From: Planctomycetota bacterium
Lineage (GTDB): Bacteria; Planctomycetota; PLA2
NCBI GenBank assembly: GCA_036443405.1
Contig: JAZFYD010000243.1
Location: forward strand, 2,908 to 66,907
Direction: 5' to 3'
Length of the DNA stretch: 64,000 nt
Shown in pieces: positions 5,949 through 45,990 of the stretch. Every line of letters begins with the position of its first letter. The stretch's first letter is position 1. The notes beneath the pieces were generated by a model that was not told the origin of the DNA, made no database searches, and saw nothing but the letters and a program-made list of their open reading frames with translations. The translations under genes and the position numbers were made by a program.

Positions 5949-5967
5949 AGGGGGCCTCACATCTTTA

Positions 5968-6030
5968 TTTGCCCAACGGCTTACCCCGTTGGAGCCACTT
6001 CTTGCTCAACGGCTTACGCCGCTAGAGGCT
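5968..6030 (+). repeat. two tandem degenerate copies of the dispersed palindromic unit TTGCCCAACGGCTGACGCCGTTGGAGCC, upstream of prkA
   Basis: Copy 1 is tttgcccaacggcttaccccgttggagcc and copy 2 is ttgctcaacggcttacgccgctagaggc. The consensus core CCAACGGC-TGAC-GCCGTTGG is a perfect 8-bp inverted repeat. Confidence 0.7.
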
Positions 6031-6315
6031 TCACGTGATCCCACGAAAAAACACCGGTCGGGTCGCTTGCGCGCCCACCCCGGCGTTTCCGCAGGTCGCT
6101 TGTTCTGAAAAGGATCCGGGCGGACCGGTGAACCGGCCCCCCGCTACCTCGAAGATAGCACAAATTGGTACTCGCAAAGGGGTTAGGTCAGACCGTACTC
6201 CCCAGAGCACGGTCTCCGATCAGTTTGCCAAACGCGTTTGTTCACACGTCCTTGATACGAATTCCATCGGCCCGATTGCCGTGCTTCGCCAGTCCGGGCC
6301 GGCGACAATTCTCCA

Positions 6316-9116: not shown

Positions 9117-9185
9117 TCCTGTGGCGCGGCGTTCGGCGCCGCATCGGTCCTGGCCCAACCATTTGCGACTCAGCAATCATCATCG

Positions 9186-9315
9186 CCCCAACGGCGCCAG
9201 CCATTGGGCGAAAAACCAAGAGCACTGAGTCCATCTCAAACTGCTCGAACGCACTGGCTCCAACGGCGTCAGCCGTTGGGCAAACAACACCGCGGCGTCA
9301 GCCGTTGGGCAAACT
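9186..9315 (-). repeat. composite copy of the dispersed repeat: CCATCTCAAAC terminus, a full palindromic unit, a half unit, and an extra degenerate unit
   Basis: ccccaacggcgccagccattgggcg at 9186, then ccatctcaaac at 9231-9241. ctccaacggcgtcagccgttgggcaaac runs 9258-9285, and ggcgtcagccgttgggcaaac 9294-9313. It lies between puuD-like and the HEAT gene. Confidence 0.8.
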
Positions 9316-10092
9316 ACACTGGCGGGAATTGGACGCCACAGACCCCCGTGCGACTTCCGCCGCTTTGACAAATGCATCAAAAACCGCGCGGCTGGCGGAA
9401 TCTCCGGCCTGCGCCGAGATCTCGGGATGCCATTGGAGCGCGATGCAGAACGACGCGGCCGGGTCCTCGATCGACTCGATGAGGCCGTCCGTGACGGTCC
9501 GCGACGAAACGACCAGGCCTTCGCCCAACAACCGGCAGGCCTGGTGGTGAAACGAGTTCACCTCGAGCGGGCCGGCGCCGACGATGTCCGCGAGGCGGGT
9601 GTCCGGCGCCACATCGACGGTGTGCCAGGTCCGATCGCCCAGCGTCTTTTGTACGTGCGCCACGGTGGAGTCCGTTTGGCTGACGAGATCCTGATAGATG
9701 TCCCCGCCGAACGCGACGTTCAGGATCTGGATTCCGCGGCAGACCCCCAACATCGGCAAGTCGCACTCCCGGGCGGCCCGGGCCAGTTCGATCTCGAAGA
9801 GGTCCCGCCGTTCGTCCACCAAATCGACGCTCGCGTGGGGCTCCTCGCCGAAGAGCTGGGCCTTGGGATCGTCCCCGCCGCTCAGCAGCAGACCGTCGCA
9901 AAGCTCCACGTATTCCGCAGCCCGCGAAGGATCCTCGACGGTCGGCAGAATGACCGGCAGCGCGCCGGCCGCCTCCAGAACCTCGGTGTAGGCGCGCAAA
10001 AGCGTCTCGGCCTCGCGCAGCGCTTTGGAGCCCTGCATGAGGACGGTGCGGGCCGTGACACCCACGACGGGCCGTTTCCTGTCGGCGACCAT
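9298..10092 (-). CDS. gamma-glutamyl-GABA hydrolase family class I glutamine amidotransferase (peptidase C26, PuuD-like)
   Basis: Motifs RPVVGVTA, LLLSGGDDP, the catalytic Cys in GVCRGIQILNVAFGG, SFHHQA and WHPE are all present. The N-terminal 263 aa of track ORF 9298..10881 are antisense read-through of the GHMP kinase gene. The start is ATG at 10092. Confidence 0.75.
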   Translation of the reverse strand: MVADRKRPVVGVTARTVLMQGSKALREAETLLRAYTEVLEAAGALPVILPTVEDPSRAAEYVELCDGLLLSGGDDPKAQLFGEEPHASVDLVDERRDLFEIELARAARECDLPMLGVCRGIQILNVAFGGDIYQDLVSQTDSTVAHVQKTLGDRTWHTVDVAPDTRLADIVGAGPLEVNSFHHQACRLLGEGLVVSSRTVTDGLIESIEDPAASFCIALQWHPEISAQAGDSASRAVFDAFVKAAEVARGSVASNSRQCSLPNG

Positions 10093-10119
10093 GTACAAAG
10101 TATCGGTGGAAACCCCGAC

Positions 10120-11109
10120 ATGCGCACGATCAAGGCGAACGCCGCGACCCGAGTCGATCTCGCCGGAGGGACGGTGGACATCTGGCCGGTCTGCCATCTC
10201 TTGGACGAACCGGCGCACACCGTCAACGCCGCCGTGAACCTGCGCGCGCACGTCGTGGTGTCGGAAACCGAAGACGGCCTCGTCACGATCGACCCCGGTT
10301 TCGACGATGTGGTGGTCTATCCCGTCGGGGAGTTGAAACACGACCGCCTTGGGCTGGTCACGCGGCTGGTCCAGCACTTCGGCGCCCATGAAGGCCTCTC
10401 GATTCGTTTGAAGACCGAGGCGCCGCCCAAGTCGGGGCTGGGCGGATCGAGCGCGCTGTCGGTCGCGCTGGGCGGAGCGTTGTCGCGCCTTCGCGGCGGG
10501 CTGCCGAGCGCCACGGTGTTCATCCGCATGCTGCAAAACGTCGAAACGCGGCTCCTGGGCACCTCGACCGGGTATCAGGACTACGTGCCCGCCGTCGGCG
10601 GCGGCGTTCACACCATCGTCGCCCATCCCGAAGATCTCGAACTGCACAGTGAAGAGGGCGCCGTCGAATTCCTCGAGGACAAACTGCATCTGATCGACAC
10701 CGCGATCCCCCACCACAGCGGCATGAACAACTGGCAGGCAGTCCGGGCGTTTCTTGATGGAGACGCCGACGTCATCGCCCGTTTCAACGGAATCAACGCC
10801 GCGGCCATCGCGATGCGCGACGCTGTGCGCGCGCGGGACATGGACGCGGTCGCGGCCGCGCTCGACGCGGAGTGGCGCCACCGCCGGAAACTCTCCCCCG
10901 TGGTCAGCAACGAAAAGATCGAGAGCATCGTCGCGGCGGTCAAACGTGCGGGCGCCACGGCCGCGAAGGTGTGTGGCGCGGGCGGCGGAGGTTGCCTCGT
11001 CGCCGTCGGCGGCGAGAGCGAAGCGGTTTACGCGGCAGCCGAGTCGGCCGGTGGAAGTCGAATCGAGTTTCGCCTCGACCGCCGCGCGCTCGAAGTCGAG
11101 GAGGCCTAG
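10120..11109 (+). CDS. GHMP-family sugar kinase
   Basis: Contains the GHMP ATP-binding motif PPKSGLGGSSALSVAL and C-terminal KVCGAGGGGCLVAV. The ATG is preceded by GGTGGA at -9. The upstream part of ORF 9427..11109 is antisense to the PuuD-like gene. Confidence 0.75.
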   Translation: MRTIKANAATRVDLAGGTVDIWPVCHLLDEPAHTVNAAVNLRAHVVVSETEDGLVTIDPGFDDVVVYPVGELKHDRLGLVTRLVQHFGAHEGLSIRLKTEAPPKSGLGGSSALSVALGGALSRLRGGLPSATVFIRMLQNVETRLLGTSTGYQDYVPAVGGGVHTIVAHPEDLELHSEEGAVEFLEDKLHLIDTAIPHHSGMNNWQAVRAFLDGDADVIARFNGINAAAIAMRDAVRARDMDAVAAALDAEWRHRRKLSPVVSNEKIESIVAAVKRAGATAAKVCGAGGGGCLVAVGGESEAVYAAAESAGGSRIEFRLDRRALEVEEA

Positions 11110-13397: not shown

Positions 13398-13946
13398 CTA
13401 AAGGCGGACGACGACCTGCATCACGAGATTCGCGTAGATGCCGGCGATCACGTCGTCGAGCATGATGCCCGTGCCCGCGGGCGCGAACTCGGCCCTCCGG
13501 CACGGCGGCGGCTTGGTGATGTCGAACAACCGGAACGCGACAAACGCGCCGCCGAGCACCAACCAGGGTTTCTCGTGAAGCGGCAGGAGAAAAAGCGCCA
13601 CCAGATATCCCGCGACCTCGTCGATCACGAATCCGCCGGGGTCCTTGGTGCCCCAGTCAGTCGTCGCGCGGTTGCCCAGCACGATCCCGATGCCGAACAC
13701 AACGACGAACGCAACGCCCAGATAGGTCTGCGTGGGCGCGCCGGGTTCGATCTCGAGCGCCAGCCACCCCAGAAGAACGCCGCCGAGGGTGCCGAAAGTC
13801 CCCGGCGCAAACGGGGCAAGACCGAGCCCGAAGAAACTCCCGAGGAACTTCACGCCGACATCATGCGACACGAGGGCGCCCAACGCACGCGGTGCCGGTA
13901 TTCGAGGCTCCGACGGCGCCCGCAGTTGAGCCAGAAAACACGGCAC
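13398..13946 (-). CDS. pgpA: phosphatidylglycerophosphatase A
   Basis: Carries GLAPFAPGTFGTLGG and C-terminal GIMLDDVIAGIYANL, as in the PgpA family. The start is GTG but uncertain (13946 or an internal GTG at 13871). Confidence 0.8.
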   Translation of the reverse strand: MPCFLAQLRAPSEPRIPAPRALGALVSHDVGVKFLGSFFGLGLAPFAPGTFGTLGGVLLGWLALEIEPGAPTQTYLGVAFVVVFGIGIVLGNRATTDWGTKDPGGFVIDEVAGYLVALFLLPLHEKPWLVLGGAFVAFRLFDITKPPPCRRAEFAPAGTGIMLDDVIAGIYANLVMQVVVRL

Positions 13947-13992
13947 TCCAACTGCGTAGGCCGTCGGCCAAGGTAAACGCGCCCACCTGAAC

Positions 13993-14076
13993 CCATCTCA
14001 AACGCCACGATTGGACGGCTTCAACGGCGTCAGCCGTTGAGCCAGCATCACTGCAGCCGTTGGGCCAGAAACACTG
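13993..14076 (-). repeat. composite dispersed repeat copy between smc and pgpA
   Basis: ccatctcaaac...cttcaacggcgtcagccgttgagcc...gcagccgttgggccagaaac. The architecture and spacing match the 9.2 kb copy. Confidence 0.8.
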
Positions 14077-17000
14077 CTAGTTCAAACCGACCACACGGCC
14101 GGCTTCGATGTCGGCGAACTTCACGCTCACGCGGCGGCTGACCCCCGCCTCGGGCATCGTCACGCCGTAGAGCGTGTTGGCAACGGTCATCGTCGGCCGG
14201 GCGTGCGTGATCACGACGAACTGGCCGGAGACCGCGAAGTCCTTCAGCATCTCACACAGCCGCACGGTGTTGGATTCGTCCAGTGCGGCGTCCACCTCAT
14301 CGAGCAGGCAGAACGGCGGCGCCTTGGTCTGGTAGATCGAGAACAGCAGCGCAACCGTGGTCAGCGACTTCTCGCCACCGCTCAGAAGCGCCATGTTGCG
14401 CAGTTCCTTACCCGGAGGCCGCACCGCGATCTCGATGCCGGATCCGAGGACGTCCTCGGGATCCTGCAGCCGCAGCTCGGCCTTGCCGCCGCCGAAGAGC
14501 TTGCGGAAGACGACCTTGAAGTTCTCGCGCACCTCATCGAACGTCTTCTGGAAACGGGTCGTGCAGGTCTCGTCGATCTTCTCGATGGCGTCGCGCAGCT
14601 GCTTGTCGGCGGTGTTCAGGTCCGACTCCTCGCGGCGCATGAACGTAAGCTTCTCGTCGACGGACTCCAGCTCCTCCAACGCCGCGTGGTTGACGTTGCC
14701 CAGCCGTTCGAGTTTCGACCGGAGGTCCTCGATGCGTTGGTCGAGTTGCTCGGGATCGCCCTCGACCTCCTGGGCCGCGAGTTGCTCCTCGTCCCAGTCG
14801 ACGCCGTGGTCGCGCTTGACCTGCTCGAGCAGCGTCTCGATGCGCAACCGGTATTCGTTTTCCTTCAAGCGCTGCTGTTCGAGTTGCTCACGGCGTTTTT
14901 CGTGCAGATCGCGCAGCTGGTCCAGGTGGTCGCCGCTCGCCTTTAGGCGCGCCTCCATCTCCGCTGCAGACTGCCGGCGCTGCTCGATCTGTTTGGCCAA
15001 CGTGTCGACCGACCCGGCGCGCTCCGCTTCGAGGCGCTCGAGTGCCTCCACCTCGTTCTTGCACTCTGTCCCGCGCGCCCGGCAGCGCTCCGCCTCGACA
15101 CGACGGACCTCGGCCTCACGCTCGGCGGCGCCGATCGATTCCGTCAAAACACGGCACCGCTGCGCGGCCGCGCCGGCCTTCTCGGACCAGCGTGCGGCTT
15201 CGACCCGTGCATCGGTCTGGCGGGTCACCGCGTCGTGGCGCGCCAGCTCGGCGGTGGAAGTGCGGTCCTGCAGTCCCTTCGCTTCGTTTTCCAACACGTC
15301 GCGCTGCGACTCGGCCTTCGACCGGCGCTCACGCGCGACCTCGAGATCCGCTCCGTGCTCCTCGATGAGCCGCGCCACTTCGGAGCGCTCCGCATCCTCG
15401 AGCTCGCGTTCCTCGTTGCGCGATGCGACCGCCCGCTTCGCTGCCGCGACCTTTTCGGCCGCCACGCGCGTCTCGCTCGCGGTCTGCTTGATCGTGGGAC
15501 GCAACGCCGAAAGCGTGCGCTCCCACTCGACCGCCTTGCCGCGGGCTTGCTCCGCGCGGCCGCTGGCATCGGCGCGGGCTTCCGAGGTCTCGGCCAAACG
15601 CCGTTGGATCTGCGAGAGTTCCGTGTTTCTGGAAACCAAACCACCGCCCGCGCCGGCCCCGCCTGCGAGGGCGCCGTTGGCCGCCGCTTCCTCGCCGGTC
15701 CGGGCAATCGCGCGCCGGCCTTCCGCGAGCGCAATCTCCAGTGCGTCGTCGAGCGAATCCGCGATGCGGGTCGTCGCGAGCAGGGACGCGAGCAACGGAC
15801 GTGTCTCCGTGGCGATTGCGAGATCGTCGAACACGGGATCGAGCGGCGGCGCGTCATCCCGCAGACGGTCGAGGGGAATCAGCCGCGCGCGGCCGCGACG
15901 GTGCTCCTTGAGCCAAGCGATCGCAGCGCGAGCGTGCTCCGTCGTCTCAACGACCACGGCGCCGGCCAGATCACCCAAAGCGGAGTCCAAGAGCGCCGCC
16001 TGTTCGCCGACGTCCCCGAGGATGTCGGCCAACACGCCGCGCACACCGGCGATCCCACCGGCATCCGCCGCCTCGAGCAGCGCGCGCGTGCCGCCTCCGA
16101 GCCCCTCGCCTTCCTCGACGAGGCGTTGCAACAACTCGCGCCGTGCCTCGAGTCCCGCGGCCTCACCGGCGAGGTCGGCTGCATCGCCCGCAGCGCGATC
16201 CTTCTCGTCACGCGCCTCACGGGCCGCCTGTTCCGCCGCCGCGCTGCGCTCCTCGAGCGCGCGCAGCGTGTCCTCGGAACTCTTGAGCTCCAACTCCGCC
16301 TCGGCACACGCAACCTGAAGCTGCCGCAGCGATTCCGCGACGTCGGTCGCGCGCTGATCGAGACGGGCGCCGCGGCTCTGCAACGCGCGCAACTCGGCGT
16401 CGCTGTTCACCTCGGCGTTACGCGCTTCGGTCTCGACCGCGAAGGCCTCGGTGCGGCTCAGGCTGAGCGCCTCGATCTCCCGGCGCAGCACTTCGGCGCG
16501 CGCCTCGACCTCGCGGAGCAACGCGTCGGCGGCTTCGAGGCCGCGCGCGCGTTCGCCGCGCACCTCTTCGGCTTTCGCCTCTTCGTCTTGGGCCGTTTCC
16601 AACTCGGGTGTCAGGTCGTGCGCGCGACGCGAGGCCTCCGCGCCTTCGCTCTCCGCCTCCTGCGCACGCAACTCCAACTGCTCCGCCTCGCGCTCTCGGG
16701 CGTTGCGTTTTTCCGTCGAAGCCCGCTGCTCGCCGAGCAGCCTCGCCATCTCCGCCTCGCCCAGCGCGACGCTTTCGCGAAACTCGCTCTGCTGTTCGCG
16801 GTGGCCGGCCGTTTCCGCGACCGCTTCCTCGAGGTGGCGGCGCGCATCTTTTTCCGCGTCGTCCACCTGCGCCAGTGTTTCGGAAATGGTGTCGCGCTGC
16901 TTGGCCAGCACCGCGTAACGCGCGAGCGCACTCTGAACCCGCAGCGTGCGCAGCTCCTCGGTGAACTCCGTGAACCGCCGCGCCTTGCCAGCTTGGATCT

Positions 17001-23922: not shown

Positions 23923-23932
23923 CGCGGGGATG

Positions 23933-24084
23933 CCCTTATCCTTACCCTTGTCCTAGACCCTCTACCCTTTTCCTTTTCCTGCTCCCTCCGCCCTTCCCCC
24001 AGGGCTAAGAACAAGGGGCACAGGAAAAGGGTCGAGTGCAAAGGGTCTAGGACAAGGACTAGGGCAAGGGCAGGGGGTGCGCCT
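23933..24084. other. long imperfect CT-rich/GA-rich inverted repeat (about 50-nt arms) between convergent yidC and radC; candidate bidirectional terminator or structured RNA
   Basis: The left arm is cccttatccttacccttgtcctagaccctctacccttttccttttcctg. The right arm is caggaaaagggtcgagtgcaaagggtctaggacaaggactagggcaagggcaggggg. The core cccttgtcctagaccct and agggtctaggacaaggg are perfect reverse complements (17 bp). Confidence 0.6.
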
Positions 24085-27374: not shown

Positions 27375-28099
27375 TCGGTGACGCGGATCTCGACGCGCCG
27401 GTTCCTCCACTGGTTCCGTTCGCTGTCGTTGGGAACACGCGGCTGATGCGGCCCGAAGCCGATGACAGCCAAGCGACCCGCATCCACACCTCCGTGGGTT
27501 GTCAGGTACTCCCAAACCGACAGGGCGCGGTGCGCGGACAGCTCGATGTTGCCGAGCGGATACTGCTTCAACGTCTCCGGCTTGGTGACTTTCACGTTGT
27601 CCGTGTGACCCTCGATGCTGACACGTCCCGTACCGCCCTTGAGCGCGGCCGCGACTTTGGCGAGCGCGTTGTTGCCCTCGGCGGACAGGACGGCGGAACC
27701 CTTGGCGAACAGAACCGCCTCGCGCAGAACGAGCCGGTACCCGTCAGGCGCACGCTCCACCTCCACGTCCGCGTCGCCCTGGAACTCAGCAAGGACCTTG
27801 CGCACGTGCGCGCTGATCTCGCCCTTGACCTCCTCGACAGTGGCTTTGGTTTTCTCGTGTTTCTCGACCTCGACCTTCAAGCGACCGACTTCCTGCTTCA
27901 ACGCGGCGCGATCGGTTGTCAAACGGTCCACGTGGAGACTCAACTCTTCGTTGGTCCCCTCGAGGTTTTCGATCGTCTGCTGAAGCGCCTCGTCGCTCGG
28001 AGTCGATATGCAGGCAGGTAGAACGGCCGCAACAAGCGCGGCGAGTAAAGGGCTCCAGCGGCGTGAGCCGTTGGGCCAGAAAAATCGGCGGCAGGACAC
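27368..28099 (-). CDS. OmpA/MotB-family lipoprotein (peptidoglycan-associated)
   Basis: The lipobox is LPACIS, followed by a coiled-coil segment. The OmpA C-terminal domain has SIEGHTDNV...SAHRALSV...NRRVEIRV. GTG at 28099 has AAGGAG 5 nt upstream. Codons 5-15 are encoded by a copy of the dispersed palindromic repeat. Confidence 0.8.
   Translation of the reverse strand: MSCRRFFWPNGSRRWSPLLAALVAAVLPACISTPSDEALQQTIENLEGTNEELSLHVDRLTTDRAALKQEVGRLKVEVEKHEKTKATVEEVKGEISAHVRKVLAEFQGDADVEVERAPDGYRLVLREAVLFAKGSAVLSAEGNNALAKVAAALKGGTGRVSIEGHTDNVKVTKPETLKQYPLGNIELSAHRALSVWEYLTTHGGVDAGRLAVIGFGPHQPRVPNDSERNQWRNRRVEIRVTEN
28053..28084 (-). repeat. single degenerate palindromic unit embedded in the 5' coding region of the OmpA-like gene
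   Basis: ctccagcggcgtgagccgttgggccagaaaaa. On the coding strand it encodes FWPNGSRRWS within the signal-peptide n-region. There is no alternative in-frame start downstream of it. Confidence 0.65.
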
Positions 28100-28119: not shown

Positions 28120-28150
28120 AAAAATCCCCCCGGACCTAGGACCGGGGGGA
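28120..28150 (-). terminator. intrinsic terminator downstream of the HTH-protein gene
   Basis: The stem ccccccgg/ccgggggg (8 bp, loop acctagga) is followed on the minus-strand transcript by a UUUUU run (plus-strand aaaaa 28120-28124). It lies between the 28217 gene end and the ompA-like start. Confidence 0.75.
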
Positions 28151-28216
28151 TGAAATCGTAGCGTCTGGGACAAGGATCATGCAGCGGTTTTGACCGCCCC
28201 ATCTTCCCGGTCAGAT

Positions 28217-29774: not shown

Positions 29775-31205
<1,431 letters not shown>

Positions 31206-31227
31206 GTGCTGAGCCTACTCTGTTTTC

Positions 31228-31357
31228 TTGCCCAACGGCTGACGCCGTTGGAGCCTCTGGTCTGGACGTTTTGATGAGGCGGCGAGGGGTTCCGGGTTTG
31301 CGCTTTGCCCAACGGCTGACGCCGTTGGAAGCCACGCAGGCGCTGCCTTTGAGATGG
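31228..31357 (+). repeat. two full forward-orientation units plus a TTTGAGATGG terminus (mirror of the composite element)
   Basis: ttgcccaacggctgacgccgttggagcc runs 31228-31255, a perfect consensus. tttgcccaacggctgacgccgttggaagcc runs 31304-31333. tttgagatgg is at 31348-31357. Confidence 0.85.
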
Positions 31358-31514
31358 ATGCGTGCCTGCTTGCGCCGCGGGCGGCGCCGTACAACTCCGA
31401 CGAGGATCAAGTTCCGCGCCGGCGACTGGACAACGCCGGACGCTCGAACCCCATCGCTCCACGCTATATGCGGGGCCGGTCACCCGATCATTCCTCAGAC
31501 GCTGCGAACGCACC

Positions 31515-31580
31515 GCTCCAACGGCGTCAGCCGTTGGGCCAACAACACTGCGGCGTCAGCCGTTGGGCCAACCGCACTAC
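31515..31580 (-). repeat. reverse-orientation composite copy (full unit plus half unit) abutting the pilC stop codon
   Basis: gctccaacggcgtcagccgttgggccaacaacactgcggcgtcagccgttgggccaaccgcactac. It closely parallels the 9258-9315 copy. Together with 31228-31357 it forms an inverted pair flanking about 155 bp. Confidence 0.85.
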
Positions 31581-32710
31581 CCTCCGCTGAGCGAATCGAG
31601 GATGCTGAGCAGCGGCAGGAACAGCGCCAAGACGATGGCGAACACCGCGCCGCCCATCACAACGATCAGGAGCGGCTCGAGCAGCGACGTGAGGCTGTTG
31701 ACGGCGACGTCGACCTCCTCGTCGTAGTTGTCCGCGACCTTGATCAGCATCTTGTCGAGTTCACCGGTCTTCTCGCCGACGTCGATCATGTTCACGACCA
31801 GATCGTCGAAGATCTTGACCTTGGTGCTCGCGAGGGGCTCCGCGATGGATTCACCCTCCTTGATCGCCTCGTAGACCGCGTTGATCGCGCGCTCCATGAC
31901 CGCGTTGCCGACCGCGCCCTTGACGATGTCCAGGGCCTCGAGAATCGGAACACCTGAATTGATCAGGGTACCGAAGGTCCGCGTGAAGCGGGCGACAAGC
32001 ACCTTTTTGTAGAGCGTGCCGGCGATCGGCATGCGCATCTTCAATTCGTCGAGGAAGTAGCGCCCCCCGGCCGACATGCGGATCAGGCGCGGCAGACCCC
32101 AGATCACAAAGAACATGATCATCAGGAACGCCCACCAGTACTGCACGAGCCACCGGCTCAGGTTCATCATGAACTTCGTGATGCCGGGCAGGCCCTCCGC
32201 GCCGCTCGGGAGACTCTTGAACACCTCCTCGAACTTGGGCACGACGCTGGTCATGATGAACAGGAGGATCAGAACGATCACGATCATGACGGCGATCGGA
32301 TACATCGCCGCACCCTTCACGCGCCTCCGCAGTTTCTCGCTCTTCTCCTTGAAGAACGCGAGACGCGAGAGGATCACGTCCAAGACACCACCGGCCTCGC
32401 CGGCGCGCACCATGTTGACGTACAAGCCGTCGAACACGCGCGGGTGCTTGGCCAAGGCCTCCGAAAGCGAAGAGCCGGACTCGACATCGTCGGTCACGGC
32501 CACGAGCACGTTCTTGAAGTAGCCCTTGGGGAGCTGACCTTCGAGAATCTTCAGACAGGAGACGATCGGAAGACCCGCGTCCTGCAGGGTGGAGAGTTGG
32601 CTCGTAAACGTGGTGAGCTGCTTCTCCGAAACACCCAGGCCGAATCCACCTGCCTTGGCGGGTTTCGCGGCCACCGCAGTGGCGGACTTTTTGGTCATCT
32701 TCCCGGCCAT
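31577..32710 (-). CDS. pilC: type II secretion / type IV pilus platform protein (GspF/PilC family)
   Basis: Two T2SS-F repeats and 3 TM helices, with typical blocks (LSTLQDAGLPIV, GEKTGELDKML). The start is ATG at 32710. Confidence 0.85.
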   Translation of the reverse strand: MAGKMTKKSATAVAAKPAKAGGFGLGVSEKQLTTFTSQLSTLQDAGLPIVSCLKILEGQLPKGYFKNVLVAVTDDVESGSSLSEALAKHPRVFDGLYVNMVRAGEAGGVLDVILSRLAFFKEKSEKLRRRVKGAAMYPIAVMIVIVLILLFIMTSVVPKFEEVFKSLPSGAEGLPGITKFMMNLSRWLVQYWWAFLMIMFFVIWGLPRLIRMSAGGRYFLDELKMRMPIAGTLYKKVLVARFTRTFGTLINSGVPILEALDIVKGAVGNAVMERAINAVYEAIKEGESIAEPLASTKVKIFDDLVVNMIDVGEKTGELDKMLIKVADNYDEEVDVAVNSLTSLLEPLLIVVMGGAVFAIVLALFLPLLSILDSLSGG

Positions 32711-32927: not shown

Positions 32928-34673
32928 TCAGAGCGTCTGCATGGTCTCCCGGAGGACCTCCTCAACGGTGGTCGACTGGTCGAAAATGGCCAACATGCCG
33001 CTCTCGCGGAGGGTGCGCATGCCTTGCTCACGGGCCCGCGTCCGAATCTGCGAGATCGGCGCGCCATCCATGATTTGGTCCTTGATCGCGTCGTTCACGA
33101 TCATGAACTCAAACAGCGCCAGACGGCCCTTGTAGCCCGTTCCATTGCATTTCTCGCACCCCTTGCCGTAGGCGAATTTCTTCCCGGCGGCCAGGTCCCG
33201 CTCGAGCTCCAACTCGCGCATGACCTCGAGGCTGGGCTCGTAAAGCTCCTTGCAGTCCGGGCAAATTCGGCGCACCAGGCGCTGGGCGATGACGGCTTCC
33301 AAGGTCGCGGCGATCAGAAACGGCTCGGCGCCGACGTCCACCAAACGGACGATCGCAAGCGGCGCGTCGTTGGTATGCAGGGTCGAAAACACGACGTGGC
33401 CGGTCAGTGACGCCTCGATGACGATCTGCGCCGTGTCCTTGTCGCGAATCTCGCCGACGAGGATCATGTCCGGGTCCTGGCGAAGGATCGAGCGCAGGCA
33501 CGCGGAGTAGGTGACCCCGATATCCTCGTTGATCTGCACCTGAACCACGCCCTCGAGGTCGTATTCGACCGGATCCTCGGTCGTGATGATCTTGACCGAG
33601 ACGTCGTTCGCGTGGTTGAGGCCGGCGTAGAGCGTCGTCGTCTTGCCCGAGCCTGTCGGGCCGGTCACCAGGATGACGCCGTGCGGAAGGTTGATGAGTT
33701 CCTTGAATTTTTTGACTTCGTCGTCGCGAAGGCCGATCTGGTCCAGCTCGAGGCTGACCACCGAGCGGTCGAGAACGCGCATCACGCATGATTCACCGAA
33801 CATCGTCGGTAGCGTGGAGACACGCATGTCGACCGGGCGGCCGCCGATCGCGAGGTCGATGCGGCCATCTTGCGGCACGCGGGTCTCGGAGATGTCGAGA
33901 CCGCTCATGACCTTTACGCGGCTGATCAACGCGGTCGCCAAGTGCAGCGGCGGCGCTTCGAGTTCGTAAAGCACGCCATCCACGCGGTAGCGGATCTTGA
34001 ACTCGTCCTCGAACGGCTCGAGGTGGATGTCCGACGCGCGGTCGCGGATCGCCTGGTAGAGGATGTAGTTGAGCAGCTTGCGGACCGGCGCCGAGTTCGC
34101 CATCTCCTCGGCGTCATCGAGGTCGGTCACGGCTCCGACGCCGATGCGCGTGGACTTGCGCTGCCGCGGCGCGGCGGCATCCTCCTCGATCTCCTTGAGA
34201 ATCGAGGACATCACCTGTTCCTCGCGGCCGTACGCCTTCTCGATGGCCGCCATGATCTGGTCCGCAGGCGCCACGACACCCTTCACCTCGCAGTTCGCGG
34301 TGAACCGGATGTCGTCGAGTGCGGACTTGTTCATCGGATCCGCCATCGCGACGGTGAGCGTGGTCCCGTCGAACAAAACGGGCATGAACTGGAACGGCCG
34401 CGCGATGGCCTCGTCAACCTTCGCGATGGCGTCTTTCTGCGGCTCTAACGTCGAAAGATCAATGACCTCCATGCCCGACTGCGTTCCGAGCGCCATCTGG
34501 AGTTGGGACTCGTCGATGTGGCCCTGACGAACGAGGATCTGGCCGATCTGGCCGCCGTCTTTTTTCTGCGTCTGCAGCGCTTCCTGAACCTGCCCCTCGT
34601 GGATGACACGCATGTCCTTGAGGACCTGGCCGAGCAGCTTCTTACGTACTGAGTGACGAGTGGGTGCAGCCAT
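32928..34673 (-). CDS. pilB: GspE/PilB-family secretion ATPase with N-terminal tandem MshEN-like (c-di-GMP-binding type) motifs
   Basis: Walker A GPTGSGKTT, Asp box, Walker B and the CxxC...CxxC tetracysteine are present. The N-terminus carries LLGQVLKDMRVIHEGQVQEALQTQ and QIGQILVRQGHIDESQLQMALGTQ, a tandem 24-aa MshEN-type motif. The ATG lies 2 nt after the pilT stop. Confidence 0.9.
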   Translation of the reverse strand: MAAPTRHSVRKKLLGQVLKDMRVIHEGQVQEALQTQKKDGGQIGQILVRQGHIDESQLQMALGTQSGMEVIDLSTLEPQKDAIAKVDEAIARPFQFMPVLFDGTTLTVAMADPMNKSALDDIRFTANCEVKGVVAPADQIMAAIEKAYGREEQVMSSILKEIEEDAAAPRQRKSTRIGVGAVTDLDDAEEMANSAPVRKLLNYILYQAIRDRASDIHLEPFEDEFKIRYRVDGVLYELEAPPLHLATALISRVKVMSGLDISETRVPQDGRIDLAIGGRPVDMRVSTLPTMFGESCVMRVLDRSVVSLELDQIGLRDDEVKKFKELINLPHGVILVTGPTGSGKTTTLYAGLNHANDVSVKIITTEDPVEYDLEGVVQVQINEDIGVTYSACLRSILRQDPDMILVGEIRDKDTAQIVIEASLTGHVVFSTLHTNDAPLAIVRLVDVGAEPFLIAATLEAVIAQRLVRRICPDCKELYEPSLEVMRELELERDLAAGKKFAYGKGCEKCNGTGYKGRLALFEFMIVNDAIKDQIMDGAPISQIRTRAREQGMRTLRESGMLAIFDQSTTVEEVLRETMQTL

Positions 34674-34675
34674 GA

Positions 34676-35740
34676 TTACAGCGCTTCGATCTTCTGGGCG
34701 AAGCTGCGCGGGTCCTGGCAGCGGATCTGCGCCGTTTCCTTGCTGATCTTTCCGGTCTTGACGTAATCCAAAAGCATGTCGTCCAGGAGGAACATGCCGA
34801 GGTTTTTGGAAGTCTGAATGGTGGACGGGATCTTGAACGTCTCCGCCTTGCGGATGTGGTTCTCGATCGCGGGACTCATGATCATGACCTCGAACGCGGC
34901 GATGACGCCGCTCTTGTCCTCGCGGGGCATCAGGACCTGTGAGATGACCGCGAGGATCGACACCGACAGCTGCACGCGGATCTGCTCCTGCTGGTCCGCG
35001 GGGAACTGATCGATGATGCGGTCCATCGTGCGGGCGGACCCCGTCGTGTGCAGAGTGCCGAACACCAAGTGACCGGTTTCCGCCGCGGTGATCGCGGTGG
35101 AGATCGTCTCCATGTCGCGCATCTCACCGAGCAGGATGACGTCCGGATCCTGACGAAGCGCGCGCCGCAGACCCTCGGCGAAAGTCGGCAGGTCGACACC
35201 GATTTCGCGCTGGTTCACGATCGATTTCTTGTGCTGGTGGTGGTACTCGATCGGGTCCTCGATCGTGATGATGTGGCGATCGAGGTTTTCGTTGACGTTG
35301 TCGATCATCGTCGCCAGCGTCGTCGTTTTGCCTGAGCCCGTGGGGCCGGTGACCAGAATCAGCCCGCGCGGGCGATCGCAAAGCGCCTGCACCTCGATCG
35401 GCAGGCCGATCTCTTCAAACGTCAGCAAACGGCTCGGGATCAAGCGGCAGACCATCGCCGCGTGACCGCGCTGGCGGAAGATCGCGACGCGGAAACGGGC
35501 CCGGGTGCCGTGGGCGTGGCCGAAGTCGGCGCTCCCCCGCTCCCGAAACTCGGTCATCATCCGCTCGGGCGCGATCTGTTCCACGAGTGTCATCGTGTCT
35601 TCGGACGTGAGCGCCGGATGCCGCACGTCCCGAAGGCGGCTGTGCTTGCGCACGACAGGCGGACGCCCAACGGTGATGTGAACGTCCGACGCGCCTTCCT
35701 CGACCATCAGGTCGAAGAGCTGATTCATTCCGATGAGCAC
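34676..35740 (-). CDS. pilT: twitching motility ATPase PilT
   Basis: PilT-size hexameric ATPase with GASDVHI, Walker A GPTGSGKTT and AIRHNLVFGTLHT-type motifs. The start is GTG at 35740 or ATG at 35728. Confidence 0.9.
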   Translation of the reverse strand: MLIGMNQLFDLMVEEGASDVHITVGRPPVVRKHSRLRDVRHPALTSEDTMTLVEQIAPERMMTEFRERGSADFGHAHGTRARFRVAIFRQRGHAAMVCRLIPSRLLTFEEIGLPIEVQALCDRPRGLILVTGPTGSGKTTTLATMIDNVNENLDRHIITIEDPIEYHHQHKKSIVNQREIGVDLPTFAEGLRRALRQDPDVILLGEMRDMETISTAITAAETGHLVFGTLHTTGSARTMDRIIDQFPADQQEQIRVQLSVSILAVISQVLMPREDKSGVIAAFEVMIMSPAIENHIRKAETFKIPSTIQTSKNLGMFLLDDMLLDYVKTGKISKETAQIRCQDPRSFAQKIEAL

Positions 35741-37419
35741 TAACTCGTCTCCAAAATAGCGCCGGCCACGCGCAGAATCTCGTCAACGGAGGTCTCTCCG
35801 GCCAGGATCTTCCGTACCCCGTCTTCGCGCAGCGTGATCATCCCGCATGACGCACGGGCTTGTTCGCGAAGCTCGATGGCCGATGCGCCGTTGAACGTCA
35901 GGTCGCGCATCCGGCTATCCATCTCGAAGAGTTCGAAGATGGCGCGCCGGCCGCGATACCCCTCGTGGCGGCACTCCGCGCACCCTACGGCTTTGTAGAG
36001 CGTCCGGTCGCCGATCATCTCGGACGTGAGTCCGAGCCCGCGCAGCTTGATCTTGTCGTGCTCCCACGGCGCCTTGCAGTTGTCACAGAGCATGCGGACG
36101 AGGCGCTGGGCCATCACCGCGAGCACCGCCGTGGACACCAGGAACGGTTTCACTCCGATGTCGATGAGGCGCGTGATCGCGGAGGTCGCATCATTGGTGT
36201 GAAGGGTGGAAAACACCAAGTGGCCCGTCAGCGCGGCCTGAATCGCGATCTCCGCCGTCTCCATGTCGCGGATCTCACCGACCAGGATGATGTTGGGCGC
36301 CTGGCGCAGCATCGAACGCAGAATGCGCGCGAAGGTGAGGCCGATGTTGTGGCGCACCTCACACTGGTTGATGCCCTTCAAGTGGTATTCCACCGGGTTT
36401 TCGGCGGTGATGATCTTGACGTTGGGCTTGTTGAGCATGCCCAGCGCGGCGTAGAGCGTCGTCGTCTTGCCCGAGCCGGTCGGCCCCGTGACCAGGAAAA
36501 CGCCGTTCGGCTTGCGGATGATGCGGTCGAAGCGTGCGTGATCCTCGGTGTGAAAACCGAGCTTTGCCAGCCCGACCAGGGCGGTCTCCTTGTCCAGGAG
36601 ACGCATGACGAGCGATTCGCCATGAGTCGCGGGCAGCGCCGAGACACGAACGTCGATGGGACGGCCCAGCAAATTCACGCCGATGCGGCCATCCTGCGGC
36701 TTGCGCTTTTCGGCGATGTCCATCCTCGCCATGATCTTCAATCGGCTGAGAACCGAGCCCTGGATGTCTTTCGGAAGCGATTTCGCCTCGTGACAGAGCC
36801 CGTCCACGCGGAATCGGATCCGCACGCGGTCCACCATTGGTTCGACGTGGATATCCGATGCCCGGGCCCGCAGGGCCTCCTCCAGCATCTGGTGCACGAG
36901 GCGGATGATCGGTGCGTCTTCGTCGTCGTCGTCCGACGGCGGGCCGCTGGCCACCGCTGCGGCACCCTTGGCTTCGACCTTCTCGCCGACGCCGTAGTAC
37001 TCGGCTTTGGCGTTGGTCTGGGCCGACGGGGTCGTCAGCGCGACGCGCACGTCCAGATTGAGGACGAATTGGAGCCCGTCGGCCTGATAAACGGCCGCGG
37101 GGTCTCGAATGGCGAGGATCAGCTGCTTAGCGCCCTGCTTCTTCACAGGGACGACGTCGTACTCCTCGACGGTGCTCTTTTCGACCAGTGCGATCGTCTC
37201 GGCGGGGAGTTTGACCTTGGAGAGGTCGATAAAGGGGAGCTTGTTCTGGCGGCAAAGGGCGCGCGCAACCTGCTCCTCGCTGAGCATGTTGAGTTCGACG
37301 AGCGCTTCCCCGATGCGGGATCCCGTGCGCTTGGCATGCACAAGGGCGTCGTCGATCTTGGCCTGCGTGACCAAGTTCATCTCGAGGAGGATCTCCCCGA
37401 GTCTCTTTCTCGGCTCCAC
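35740..37419 (-). CDS. second GspE/PilB-family secretion ATPase with MshEN-like N-terminal motifs
   Basis: Walker A GPTGSGKTT and the tetracysteine CDNC...CAEC are present. The N-terminus has RLGEILLEMNLVTQAKIDDALVHA and RIGEALVELNMLSEEQVARALCRQ. GTG at 37419 has GGAAGGAG 7 nt upstream. Confidence 0.9.
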   Translation of the reverse strand: MEPRKRLGEILLEMNLVTQAKIDDALVHAKRTGSRIGEALVELNMLSEEQVARALCRQNKLPFIDLSKVKLPAETIALVEKSTVEEYDVVPVKKQGAKQLILAIRDPAAVYQADGLQFVLNLDVRVALTTPSAQTNAKAEYYGVGEKVEAKGAAAVASGPPSDDDDEDAPIIRLVHQMLEEALRARASDIHVEPMVDRVRIRFRVDGLCHEAKSLPKDIQGSVLSRLKIMARMDIAEKRKPQDGRIGVNLLGRPIDVRVSALPATHGESLVMRLLDKETALVGLAKLGFHTEDHARFDRIIRKPNGVFLVTGPTGSGKTTTLYAALGMLNKPNVKIITAENPVEYHLKGINQCEVRHNIGLTFARILRSMLRQAPNIILVGEIRDMETAEIAIQAALTGHLVFSTLHTNDATSAITRLIDIGVKPFLVSTAVLAVMAQRLVRMLCDNCKAPWEHDKIKLRGLGLTSEMIGDRTLYKAVGCAECRHEGYRGRRAIFELFEMDSRMRDLTFNGASAIELREQARASCGMITLREDGVRKILAGETSVDEILRVAGAILETS

Positions 37420-41538: not shown

Positions 41539-41770
41539 GCACCGGCGCGGGGTTTGAACTCGGAGAGAACCGTTGGCTGCAAGTTCACCGTCACCGGAAG
41601 CTCGCCGCATCAGACCACGGACGGTTGCTGTTGCCGATGAGGTGCCAGGTGGCGCGGCGATCAGGCTGTGGTTGCCGCATTCCGTGGTCTGTGGCGCCGT
41701 CTTACCAGGCACCGCTGCTTTGCTGCCCGCACCGTTGTTTGTGTTACGAGCCGCGGAGGGGTCGCGCGGG

Positions 41771-41815
41771 TGTGGGATGTTCCCATTCGCAACACGACCA
41801 CCCGCGGTCGGTGCC
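41771..41815 (-). repeat. second repeat family, copy B (about 85% identical to 45941-45990)
   Basis: The reverse complement reads ggcaccgaccgcgggtggtcgtgttgcgaatgggaacatcccaca. The other locus reads accgatcgcgggtggtcgtgctgcggatgcgaaacacgcacaccacaccc. It can fold as CGCGGGTG(T)GG-loop-CCACCCGCG. Confidence 0.55.
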
Positions 41816-42099: not shown

Positions 42100-42849
42100 A
42101 TGGCTGGACACTCACACTGGGCCGGGATCAAACACAAGAAGGCCGCGACGGACAAGAAGCGCGGCAAGATCTTCTCCAAGATCGCCAACCTGATCATCTC
42201 GGCCGCCCGAAACGGCGGCGGCGACCCGGAGACCAACCTCGCGCTGCGGTACGCGATCGAGAAGGGGCGCGCCGCGAACATGCCGCGCGACACGATTGCG
42301 CGCGCGGTCAAAAAAGGAACCGGCGAGCTGGCCGGCGAGGAGATCCACGAGCTCACCTACGAGGCGTACGCGCCGGGCGGCGCCGCGCTTCTGATCCACA
42401 CGATCACGGACAACGTGAACCGGACCGGCGCGGACGTGCGCAGCATGCTCGAAAAACGCGGCGGCACGCTCGGCAAGCAGGGCAGCGTCTCCTGGAACTT
42501 CGAGCGCAAGGCGCTGTTCACGGTCGCGACGAGCGCGATCGGCGAGGAAGAGCTGTTCGACCTCGCTCTGGAGGCCGGCGCCGAGGACGTCTCGGACGAA
42601 GGCGAGTTCTATTCCATCACCGCCCCGCCGGAGTCGTTCGCGACACTCGCGGCGGCGCTGGAAGCCAAGGGCCTCAAACCCGACGCGAGCGAGTTGACCG
42701 ACCTGCCCAAATCGCGGGTCATGCTGGAAGCGGACGCAGCGCGCAAGGTGCTCGCGCTCATCGAAACGCTCGAGGACCACGAGGATGTGCAGACGGCGAT
42801 CACGAACGCCGACCTGCCGGACGAGGTCCTGGCGGAACTCGGCTCTTGA
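42100..42849 (+). CDS. yebC: YebC/PmpR-family transcriptional regulator
   Basis: Starts MAGHSHWAGIKHKKAATDKKRGKIFSK, the canonical YebC N-terminus. A TATAAT lies 10 nt upstream of the ATG. Confidence 0.9.
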   Translation: MAGHSHWAGIKHKKAATDKKRGKIFSKIANLIISAARNGGGDPETNLALRYAIEKGRAANMPRDTIARAVKKGTGELAGEEIHELTYEAYAPGGAALLIHTITDNVNRTGADVRSMLEKRGGTLGKQGSVSWNFERKALFTVATSAIGEEELFDLALEAGAEDVSDEGEFYSITAPPESFATLAAALEAKGLKPDASELTDLPKSRVMLEADAARKVLALIETLEDHEDVQTAITNADLPDEVLAELGS

Positions 42850-45940: not shown

Positions 45941-45990
45941 ACCGATCGCGGGTGGTCGTGCTGCGGATGCGAAACACGCACACCACACCC
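45941..45990 (+). repeat. second repeat family, copy A, just downstream of rpsI
   Basis: accgatcgcgggtggtcgtgctgcggatgcgaaacacgcacaccacaccc. This is homologous to the 41.8 kb copy in opposite orientation. Confidence 0.55.

Follow-up and report, generated by a model that had tools for sequence, protein, structure and literature searches.

Short hairpin repeats resembling bacterial REP elements in uncultured marine Planctomycetota

What kind of element is a short hairpin that recurs between, and occasionally within, the genes of a planctomycete, and how might it have come to be there? The question is raised by a 64,000-nt stretch of a Planctomycetota genome, referred to here as the window, in which an earlier examination of the letters alone (the sequence-only reading) had recognised composite palindromic repeats at six loci, likened them to REP or MITE elements and suggested a terminator or mRNA-stabilising role or a small-RNA family. 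The analysis described here shows that the repeats are a real and hitherto undescribed family, and indicates that they resemble a further kind of bacterial REP element and not terminators or a classical transposon.

The repeat unit and its copies in the window

Each unit is assigned to the strand that reads TGGCCCAAC..GTTGGAGC, termed RNA-sense. On this strand it consists of a T/G-rich leader followed by TGGC-CCAACNNC-TGAC-GNNGTTGG-AGC, about 33-39 nt in all, with CCAACNNC and GNNGTTGG forming an 8-bp stem around the TGAC tetraloop, and TGGC and AGC remaining unpaired. By position matrix the conserved block spans 27 to ~33 nt and includes TGGC and AGC; sequence further out is unconserved. The core unit proposed earlier is real, since TTGCCCAACGGCTGACGCCGTTGGAGCC with at most 3 mismatches occurs at 7 sites in the window and at none in shuffled sequence (n=100). 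The palindrome CCAACGGC-N4-GCCGTTGG with at most 2 mismatches is found at 10 sites against 0.03 expected, and a covariance model (R1), run with filters off, recovers 10 full units at E <= 2e-8 and none in shuffles. Beyond the full units the window holds 3 half units and 2 decayed ones (Table 1).

Table 1. Repeat units and associated boxes in the window, with covariance-model (CM) scores
Feature	Position	Strand	Remarks
Full unit, loop variant TTAC	5963-6001	+	CM 39.8 bits, E 6.5e-10; antisense to both flanking minus-strand genes; 20 nt upstream of prkA start codon (5948)
Decayed unit	6002-6034	+	6 mismatches to core; CM 11.2 bits; head-to-tail with 5963-6001
Diverged unit CGCCCAATGGCTGGCGCCGTTGGGGC, distal member of composite A	9179-9217	-	CM 40.8 bits
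TTTGAGATGG box, lineage-specific 3' extension, composite A	9231-9240	-	15 nt past full unit
Full consensus unit, composite A	9251-9289	-	Exact core match; CM 52.2 bits
Half unit, composite A	9286-9312	-	5' arm and loop, without 3' arm
Diverged unit, distal member of composite B	13901-13939	-	CM 35 bits, E 2e-8
Decayed unit, composite B	13945-13971	-	7 mismatches to core; aligns with distal unit of composite A
TTTGAGATGG box, composite B	13993-14002	-	Same box as at 9231-9240
Full unit, composite B	14012-14050	-	CM 46.9 bits
Half unit, composite B	14046-14076	-	Starts directly past smc stop codon (TAG, 14077-14079)
Unit in coding region of OmpA-family lipoprotein	28046-28084	-	CM 45.5 bits
Full consensus unit	31222-31260	+	Exact core match; CM 52.3 bits; antisense to flanking genes; 22 nt upstream of histidine-kinase start codon (31205)
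Full unit, then TTTGAGATGG box (31348-31357)	31299-31337	+	CM 37.7 bits
Full consensus unit 3' of pilC	31509-31547	-	CM 56.2 bits
Half unit	31544-31570	-	6 nt past pilC stop codon (TAG, 31577-31579)
Unit in rsmH	61236-61274	-	In frame as SAQRLTALE; CM 38.4 bits

The 8-bp inverted repeat with a 4-nt loop, as originally described, is borne out by the predicted fold of the unit at 9251-9289, a tetraloop on a stem of 8 bp, and by covariation of the pairing across the family. Pattern matches from 86 metagenome contigs have complementary bases at both variable stem pairs (NN/NN) in ~106 of 116 cases, with 6 pair combinations in use. Stem cells are paired at 97.1%, compared with 86.5% in shuffles and at most 55% in slid controls, and the stem covariation score of 0.256 (0.071 shuffled) was matched by 0 of 500 shuffles. 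A compensatory change can be seen in the window itself, where the outermost stem pair of the unit at 14012-14050 has gone from C-G to T-A. On these sequence comparisons the 8-bp stem is evidently kept by selection for pairing, and the loop and unpaired flanks are kept in sequence. The mispairs that do occur in the stem are G-T (10) and A-C (9) in equal measure, so the data are silent on which strand folds. Stem variants cluster by contig, 61% of pairs having a common variant as against 26% by permutation, and the GG/CC variant is carried by all window units except two.

Spread involves single units as well as lineage-specific composites. The fixed composite architecture reported by the sequence-only reading is present at 9231-9321, where it runs CCATCTCAAAC, 15-nt spacer, full unit, half unit and TACACTG; it is recognisable at 13993-14076 and 31489-31580, partial at 31299-31357, and found also in metagenome contigs L092 and L066. 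In outline, the window composite is a half unit and a full unit, then ~15 nt, TYTGAGATGG and decayed units. Besides its place in composite A, the TTTGAGATGG box comes after units at 13993-14002, at 31348-31357 and in both of these contigs. A different extension, TTCGAACGGGTCGGA, which follows units in L034, L054 and L087, has no copy in the window and is thus a feature of other lineages.

All six loci noted earlier are genuine, and copies at 13901-13971 (in the composite after smc) and 61236-61274 had been missed. The accompanying statement that most copies lie 3' of minus-strand genes in the same sense holds for the puuD-like C26 peptidase gene, smc and pilC, each of which is immediately followed by a copy in sense. 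It does not hold for 5963-6034 and 31222-31337, which have the opposite orientation and precede the prkA and histidine-kinase starts by ~20 nt, and for the copies within the lipoprotein coding region and rsmH. At the puuD-like gene (Peptidase_C26 at 1.8e-57) the loop TGA of the half unit (9298-9300) is itself the stop codon, the translation ending ...QCSLPNG. An alternative placement of composite A in a divergent promoter region was rejected by the positions of Pfam domains; both the public gene call and a codon-based finder run a GHMP-kinase ORF across the C26 peptidase gene. The lipoprotein starts at a GTG (28099) preceded by a Shine-Dalgarno sequence, AAGGAG, and the unit occupies codons 8-16, the n-region of its signal peptide; it reads TGG CCC AAC GGC TCA, so that the loop TGA has become TCA. 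The density of copies is uneven, with 9 of the 10 full units between 5.9 and 31.6 kb, and the 9.7 kb of the same genome past the window end contain no further unit.

Distribution, polarity and turnover

The family extends to 86 metagenome contigs and 3 Planctomycetota MAGs and is therefore no local duplication artefact, the outcome that would have undone the earlier description. Its hosts are a patchy set of uncultured marine Planctomycetota, mostly from sediment-type metagenomes, and the unit sequence is near-identical in contigs that range from 53 to 72% G+C. Units occur about once per 6-9 kb. Clusters of units are intergenic in 98 of 102 cases and lie in genes in the other 4. Four matches in viral contigs have a non-complementary inner stem, are without the conserved flanks and lie mostly inside genes, and are accordingly regarded as chance.

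Placement is strongly polar. Neighbouring units within 300 nt are arranged head-to-tail in 45 pairs and inverted in 2 (p = 1.6e-11), and in tandem stacks they stand 1-8 nt apart. The gene upstream is co-oriented in 57 of 78 clusters, at a median of 32 nt past its stop codon; of the clusters no more than 60 nt from a stop codon, 37 share the orientation of the gene and 4 oppose it (p = 1e-7). Convergent spacers hold 26% of clusters as compared with 14% of all spacers, and in 11 of 14 such cases the unit is sense to whichever gene lies nearer. The sense orientation is likewise seen beside a tRNA gene and at a site upstream of a gene for 23S rRNA. It is the leader side that abuts the nearest gene end, usually 0-60 nt past a co-oriented stop codon or straight after the gene's own intrinsic terminator. 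By GC skew, the sense strand is probably the leading-strand sequence. The adjoining genes are housekeeping ones (lexA, scpB, efp, smc, pilC, tRNA, 23S rRNA), and a Pfam scan of the small genes beside units returned LexA, ScpB, EF-P and methyltransferases.

Comparison of relatives shows gain and loss of units at the DNA level over short evolutionary distances. A unit occupies the same site 3' of pilC as 31509-31547 in L092, whose PilC is 97% identical to that of the window. Contigs with 87% identical PilC (L099, L100) have no unit, and their pilC-kinase spacer measures ~70-80 nt as against 371 nt in the window; syntenic 21-kb loci with PilC 79-81% identical (L093-L098) are likewise free of units. 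Close relatives that are without the unit at the same genes have ordinary terminators. Units are also occasionally fixed in frame inside genes. The rsmH of the window is separated from that of its closest relative, L107, by a 30-nt indel that takes out the 5' arm and loop of the unit; its polarity, insertion or deletion, is read by parsimony. The rsmH unit lies within a 22-residue segment, the whole of which is missing from homologues 55-67% identical.

Alternative explanations for a conserved hairpin

The position of G+C-rich hairpins just past stop codons is what would be expected if the units were the intrinsic (Rho-independent) terminators of the organism, but the details do not agree with the terminator role first suggested. 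A T-run follows the cluster in only 1 of 102 cases, T is not enriched 3' of the unit (23-41% at +28 to +31), and the T-rich tract lies on the 5' side instead. A terminator scan of the window flags none of its units, and canonical terminators are found right beside units, at 28124-28151 (-) next to the lipoprotein copy and, as hairpins with T-runs, in L054, L087 and L048. By a strict definition a hairpin with a T-run stands just before the cluster in 13 of 99 cases and on the antisense side in 0 of 97; this recount is the figure relied on, a loose hairpin criterion having given 32 of 102. Some units are also located in 5' leaders and inside genes. The units are thus evidently not terminators themselves. 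Descent from a DDE transposon, as a deletion derivative with terminal inverted repeats and target-site duplications in the manner of a classical MITE, would fit the composite copies of 90-170 nt common to several loci and the longer repeated modules of 250-300 nt, each carrying a unit, in some contigs. It is nonetheless highly improbable, because no target-site duplication of 3-5 nt is found at any boundary offset (the best 3-, 4- and 5-mers recur in 10, 5 and 3 of 105 copies), the ends of composites are not inverted repeats, the composites being built of head-to-tail units and a unique box, and the conserved block is merely ~33 nt long. The MITE half of the original label thus falls for want of terminal repeats and duplications; the REP half stands, with interspersed palindromic repeats, a hairpin under selection and a family that reaches beyond the window.

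An RNA element selected by the host is a more serious candidate, if still an unlikely one. Such a 3'-UTR (sometimes 5'-UTR) stem-loop, with its UGAC loop and single-stranded flanks conserved, would be bound by a specific RNA-binding protein or nuclease that stabilises or processes the upstream transcript, and its spread would be secondary. The upstream-sense bias (37 against 4 clusters, 11 of 14 convergent spacers), extending to the tRNA gene and the 23S rRNA gene, favours it, as do the helix kept by covariation, the fixed loop and flanks, and the one consensus across contigs of 53-72% G+C. A terminator lies within 110 nt downstream in 21 of 102 clusters, so those units are transcribed. Yet 13-31% of clusters lie just past the gene's own T-run, where transcript should be scarce; close relatives manage at the same genes with ordinary terminators; G-U wobble is not favoured over A-C (10 and 9); and half and decayed units, stacks 1-8 nt apart and in-gene copies resemble the turnover of junk. 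Nor does any Rfam family match: a scan of the window against Rfam 15 gave 0 matches at the gathering score, an E-value scan of 31190-31600 returned noise only (E about 5), and eight unit-bearing loci gave no relevant match. A suhB/mmgR match at a unit in L087 was weak, below the gathering score, and was rejected. Integron attC sites, which are thought to act as folded single strands, also lie 3' of ORFs in sense and co-oriented, with conserved AAC...GTT ends and a conserved structure around an inner stem that varies and covaries. It is for all that very unlikely that the units are miniature attC-like or dif-like sites which a tyrosine recombinase recognises in folded, single-stranded form. The sense-strand start GCCCAAC does fit RYYYAAC, but the end GTTGGAG, though close, departs from GTTRRRY at the final position (the opposite strand shows the converse fit); the unit of 27 nt is far shorter than the 57-141 nt of attC and has a single box pair, with no second (L) pair and no extrahelical bases; and its flanks are core housekeeping genes, syntenic in relatives free of units, and not cassettes, there being no cassette between units 1-8 nt apart and no integrase seen nearby. 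As for a DNA uptake sequence, made frequent through the bias of a type IV pilus or competence machinery, the short, over-represented motif keeps its sequence among related genomes, pilB/T paralogues and pilC are encoded in the window, and the uptake sequences of Neisseria often occur in terminator-like inverted pairs. Here too the odds are minimal: covariation implies that pairing is selected and not sequence alone, units are missing from close relatives that possess these pilus genes, and where present they are nearly absent from coding sequence and, at ~1 per 6-9 kb, sparser than known uptake sequences.

A REP-like family and its possible mode of spread

The properties that remain are those of REP elements. 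The unit is a dispersed imperfect palindrome of 20-40 nt with a stem-loop, present in many, mostly extragenic copies that are over-represented past the 3' ends of ORFs and in tandem or convergent spacers, with occasional copies in genes; it belongs to a lineage-specific family and leaves no target duplications. In these respects it resembles the REP and BIME elements of Enterobacteria and Pseudomonas, which comprise species-specific families and the GTAG- and CGTC-tagged REP superfamilies (Di Nocera et al., 2013; PMC3733652), and which also occur inside genes (PMC3733652). Unlike these tagged REPs, the window units have no unpaired GTAG or CGTC at the end but TGGC on the 5' side and AGC on the 3' side, CGTC appearing in the position matrix only across the loop of the complementary strand; they also follow one another head-to-tail in nearly every case, instead of alternating or forming inverted pairs, and their loop sequence is conserved. 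REPIN-RAYT systems (Bertels and Rainey, 2011; PMC3116915) and the class 3 TnpA-Y1 'REPtron-like' systems, reported chiefly from Planctomycetes and Acidobacteria (Quentin et al., 2018; PMC6006769), share with the present family a conserved hairpin, turnover at the DNA level and amplification of sub-families within genomes, and the class 3 systems share its host phylum. The inverted doublet that defines a REPIN is, however, limited to 2 of 47 neighbour pairs, the window hairpin does not have at its foot the CnGA described for class 3, and no Y1 gene is linked to the units in ~0.5 Mb screened.

The subterminal hairpins of IS200/IS605 elements offer a further parallel, in that a hairpin with short single-stranded flanks would serve as the recognition unit, orientation is tied to one DNA strand and no target duplication is made, but the present units are identical, not separate left and right ends, and no transposase lies between two distinct ends. 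Rickettsia palindromic elements (RPE) are 100-150 nt long and lie mostly inside genes. The in-frame copies in rsmH and in the signal peptide of the OmpA-family lipoprotein, the latter with the stop codon of its loop mutated away, show a similar tolerance of a palindrome within coding sequence, although in-gene copies are exceptional here (4 of 102 clusters). A literature search with the exact unit sequence gave no match, and one for palindromic repeats in Planctomycetes found only general REP papers.

The explanation that we favour, with a probability of roughly 0.6, is that the units are REP-like interspersed hairpin repeats, non-autonomous and copied through a single-stranded hairpin intermediate by an enzyme acting in trans. 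This sequence-specific enzyme would read the loop and the unpaired flanks, and a HUH tyrosine transposase of the RAYT/IS200 type is the obvious candidate because those elements leave no target duplication. The polarity of the units could stem from preferential insertion at the 3' side of sense-strand T-rich tracts, or else from purifying selection against other placements. E. coli REPs protect mRNA 3' ends, and by analogy a unit transcribed as a stable hairpin in a 3' UTR may secondarily do the same. Several observations count against this explanation. The missing GTAG/CGTC end tag and the near absence of inverted doublets set the family apart from the best-studied REP systems, and near-identical sequence at 53-72% G+C together with the upstream-sense bias would also suit a host-selected element. 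A motif screen for HUH-Y1 among the ORFs of ~0.5 Mb of sequence gave no match, and the genes beside units include no transposase, RAYT or other partner.

A strand-specific mobile hairpin of a new class, outside the RAYT/REPIN route, is an unlikely variant. Four features point towards it: insertion head-to-tail and on the 3' side of terminator tails or other T-rich tracts; truncated copies that always keep the leader-side end (the 3' end of the complementary strand, ...GTTGGGCCA); a complementary strand that resembles a tRNA acceptor end, with GCCA and often an A-run after its minihelix; and the units that in some contigs lie among tRNA 3'-end fragments. Copying of such an element would begin at one fixed end, for example by a one-ended rolling-circle or HUH process, or even by an RNA-templated process with a novel enzyme.

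The repeats also have practical consequences. They yield spurious short ORFs and recurrent pseudo-peptides, one of them supplies the stop codon of the C26 peptidase gene, and they probably break metagenome assemblies; for these reasons the repeats may serve as a lineage marker. Among the non-coding features of bacterial genomes, REP-like elements rank with the commonest, and their mode of spread and their use to the host are still argued. Nearly all of the work on them has been carried out in Proteobacteria, and the present family extends the phenomenon to uncultured Planctomycetota. It also provides handles on the REP question in the form of very clear covariation, unusually strict polarity, contrasts of gain and loss between close relatives, and in-frame coding copies, one of which has had the stop codon in its loop edited out.

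Repeat units, their fold and their distribution

It is clear that the window carries a repeat family: a 28-nt core recurs at seven sites with at most three mismatches, vs none in 100 dinucleotide-preserving shuffles, and the 8-4-8 palindrome occurs at 10 window sites where 0.03 would be expected. A covariance model (R1; 39 positions, 8 base pairs) built from 60 distinct units of the window and other sequences recovered 10 full units in the window with filters off (E <= 2e-8), and tells the two unit orientations apart (about 50 vs 11 bits). All six loci named in a sequence-only reading of this DNA are unit sites, and the composite architecture described there was found at 9231-9321, again at 13993-14076 and 31489-31580, and in part at 31299-31357. 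The same reading had placed most copies 3' of genes in the same sense, which holds at the puuD-like gene, smc and pilC but fails at two clusters that lie antisense and upstream of start codons (see table). In composite A the stop codon of the puuD-like C26 peptidase gene is the loop TGA (9298-9300) of the half unit, a form with the 5' arm and loop and without the 3' arm.

Repeat units and neighboring features of the window
Feature	Position	Remarks
Half units	9286-9312, 14046-14076, 31544-31570	
Decayed units	6002-6034, 13945-13971	
Composite A	9179-9312	directly 3' of puuD-like C26 peptidase gene, sense
Composite B	13901-14076	first base is the next after the smc stop
Cluster	31509-31570	begins 6 nt past pilC stop
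Clusters	5963-6034, 31222-31337	antisense to neighbors; some 20 nt 5' of the start codons of prkA and the histidine-kinase gene
Three T2SSE/PilB-PilT-type ATPase paralogues in a row	32928-37419	upstream of pilC; kept in all relatives compared
Long imperfect hairpin	23931-24072	47-nt arms, 74% complementary, one C/T-rich (TGCCCTTATCCTTACCCTTGTCC...), other G/A-rich; between yidC and a radC-like gene, which converge and end at 23922 and 24083; possibly a terminator working in both directions, or a repeat of another type
44-nt sequence GGTGTGGGATGTTCCCATTCGCAACACGACCACCCGCGGTCGGT, 82% conserved	41769-41812, 45941-45984	precedes two gene groups that converge (42100-43781, plus strand; 45805-44016, minus strand); orientation equal relative to both, so possibly a leader or operator in common

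In RNA sense the unit reads TGGCCCAAC-NN-CTGACG-NN-GTTGGAGC. The 143 non-redundant units, summarized in a position matrix, share a T/G-rich leader of ~6-8 nt, an unpaired TGGC, the 8-bp stem with its loop (TGAC in 126 of the 143) and an unpaired AGC, with no sequence conservation beyond these parts. The information content of the central positions is inflated because they were fixed by the search pattern behind most loci; that pattern placed no constraint on outer positions or leader. RNA folding gave the expected hairpin in every full unit, and the larger composites are unremarkable in stability (z about -1.4 to -1.7). In alignment A3 the share of paired stem cells is 97.1%, vs 86.5% in shuffles, and covariation scores 0.256 vs 0.071 (0 of 500 shuffles as high); sliding the partner by 1-3 columns leaves at most 55% of stem cells paired. 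The hairpin is kept by selection for pairing, and the loop and single-stranded flanks are conserved in sequence.

The family is not confined to this region, as units occur in three Planctomycetota MAGs and 86 metagenome contigs. An exact 22-mer was found in only four stretches of a 185,579-species genome collection, all within those MAGs, and one of them (L003) holds four tandem units, one with a compensated stem. The metagenome contigs were matched by a pattern that left both inner stem pairs free, and in about 106 of the 116 matches these positions complement one another (GG/CC 54, CG/CG 17, AC/GT 12, AT/AT 11, GC/GC 10, AG/CT 2). Four viral-contig matches were set aside as of the chance type, with non-complementary inner pairs and missing flanks. 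Most loci came through one search pattern, and the related sequence covered amounts to about 0.5 Mb. The G+C content of contigs with units spans 53-72%; the window's proteins have exact matches in assembly GCA_044232445.1, and their homologues carry the Planctomycetota label. Rfam holds no family matching the units, and their sequence was not found in the searchable literature.

Placement, polarity and terminators

The 143 units group into 102 clusters. They were placed against gene calls from a codon-usage finder trained on the Pfam-confirmed window genes; on metagenome contigs this simple tool misplaces some start codons and once takes the wrong strand. A co-oriented gene lies upstream, in RNA sense, in 57 of the 78 clusters having a called upstream gene, with the cluster at a median of 32 nt past its stop; the next gene downstream is at a median distance of 160-245 nt. 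Of the clusters no more than 60 nt from a stop codon, 37 are sense and 4 antisense (p = 1e-7). Among 14 cases in convergent spacers, 11 have the unit in sense with the nearer gene, and of 47 pairs of adjacent units 45 run head-to-tail, often with just 1-8 nt between them. The polarity of the units is strict. Stop codons beside them (TAG 17, TGA 15, TAA 5) resemble the background. The + strand of the window has negative GC skew, by which most window units probably have leading-strand sequence as their sense strand, a placement that agrees with insertion into the lagging-strand template and equally with a transcription-linked bias.

Three further observations concern gene context. An exception to polarity is contig L016 (557-1518), where two antisense units lie within 8 nt past a PilC-like gene whose product is 43% identical to the window's. 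On L078 a sense unit (1-36) lies ~230 nt ahead of a gene for 23S rRNA (261-2929), and therefore probably within the pre-rRNA leader. Two long ORFs on opposite strands overlap at window 9298-11109: the one on the minus strand has an entire Peptidase_C26 domain (1.8e-57, nt ~9420-10071), the one on the plus strand GHMP-kinase domains only in nt ~10360-11041; most likely these are two divergent genes meeting near 10100, and the public call of a 560-aa GHMP kinase (L005/L106) therefore appears over-extended, hiding the peptidase gene.

The terminator role proposed from sequence did not hold: a T-run follows the hairpin in only 1 of 102 clusters, the position matrix has no T enrichment 3' of the unit, and a terminator scan of the window flagged none of the units. 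The unit is without a terminator signature. Strictly defined, a canonical hairpin with T-run in the same orientation stands immediately before 13 of 99 clusters (examples are L054, L087, L048 and L009), vs 0 of 97 on the antisense side; within the window, the unit at 28046-28084 comes after a canonical terminator (28124-28151, minus strand). In another 21 of 102 clusters a terminator follows at no more than 110 nt, so that a unit may precede or follow a real terminator. A second short repeat, GGGTCGGACTGRAAC, stands in three tandem copies after pilC in a unit-free relative (L093 11126-11175); as TTCGAACGGGTCGGA it is part of a terminator-like hairpin immediately 3' of units (L034 2833-2847, L054 1571-1585, L087 2526-2540 and 2625-2639), and a similar GGTTCGGAA duplication lies upstream of the unit in the window's rsmH.

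Gain, loss and copying of units

Units are gained and lost as DNA. Among PilC orthologues with conserved synteny, the 371-nt pilC-kinase spacer of the window holds four full units and one half unit; L092 (PilC 97% identical) has one unit in the same place 3' of pilC, on a contig that stops before the kinase gene; L099 and L100 (87%) have no units and a spacer of about 70-80 nt; and L093-L098 (79-81%; about 100 kb in total) have none in spacers of 43-169 nt, with an ordinary terminator after pilC in L097. The rsmH unit is read in frame as SAQRLTALE. In its closest relative (P0121/L107, 88-91% identical and from the same sample as L092) exactly 30 nt, TTCGGAAGAGTCGGCCCAACGACTGACGGC, are missing and GTTGGCG is retained, and homologues of 55-67% identity lack the entire 22-residue segment. 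The simplest history is a ~66-nt insertion in a common ancestor and a later 30-nt deletion in the line of L107; the reverse order is possible. In an OmpA-family lipoprotein gene the unit lies in codons 8-16, after a strong SD and GTG start, in a frame that would make the loop TGA a stop; the loop there is TCA.

Derived composites also propagate. Half units retain the leader, the 5' arm and a varying share of the loop and adjoin an intact next unit, an arrangement shared by three window composites, L066, L075 and L039, and derived forms are therefore copied. Stem variants cluster by contig, being shared in 61% of pairs vs 26% by permutation. Target-site duplications were sought and none was detectable.

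Larger assemblies were also seen. In L086 1380-2100 (-) and L023 1-780 (-) units lie inside tandem arrays (periods 142 nt and 511 nt) built of tRNA 3'-end fragments (…CCCCGCTACCA) and that tRNA's terminator hairpin; the L086 array also holds an inverted tRNA T-arm fragment, and two of its tRNA fragments are able to pair with the unit in the loop. Unit-carrying modules of 250-300 nt recur in L013, L023, L037 and L049. A ~1.4-kb stretch (L028 1-1474, also in L019 and L079) has no convincing ORF, finds no counterpart in Rfam and combines many GNRA-like loops and helices with 5-6 interspersed units; a large structured non-coding RNA is one possible reading, a repeat-rich spacer another.

Mechanism and affinities

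Copying of the units probably proceeds via a folded single strand and would need a trans-acting enzyme that is sequence-specific. The precedent comes from HUH enzymes of the IS200/RAYT type, since these recognize a hairpin together with a few bases beside it and leave no duplication behind. Class 3 Y1 proteins are reported chiefly in Planctomycetes and Acidobacteria (PMC6006769); within the roughly 0.5 Mb of related sequence no HUH/Y1-type gene linked to the units was found. Ranked second to such copying is an RNA-level role, possible for units upstream of a terminator, in which the 3' hairpin would protect the transcript. The sequence-only reading had offered an mRNA-stabilizing role or a small-RNA family.

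The closest kind of element is the REP/BIME-type interspersed palindrome, although the units are without the GTAG/CGTC end tag (defined in PMC3733652) and almost without the inverted doublets of the best-known REP systems. Copies within genes resemble Rickettsia palindromic elements. Integron attC sites are resembled in the AAC...GTT ends, sense placement and co-orientation; identity with them is ruled out by unit length, box structure and gene context. The units are a new family of a known, REP-like kind, unusual in its strict polarity; the observation is solid and undescribed, but in its biology the family is probably one more REP-like element of uncultured organisms.
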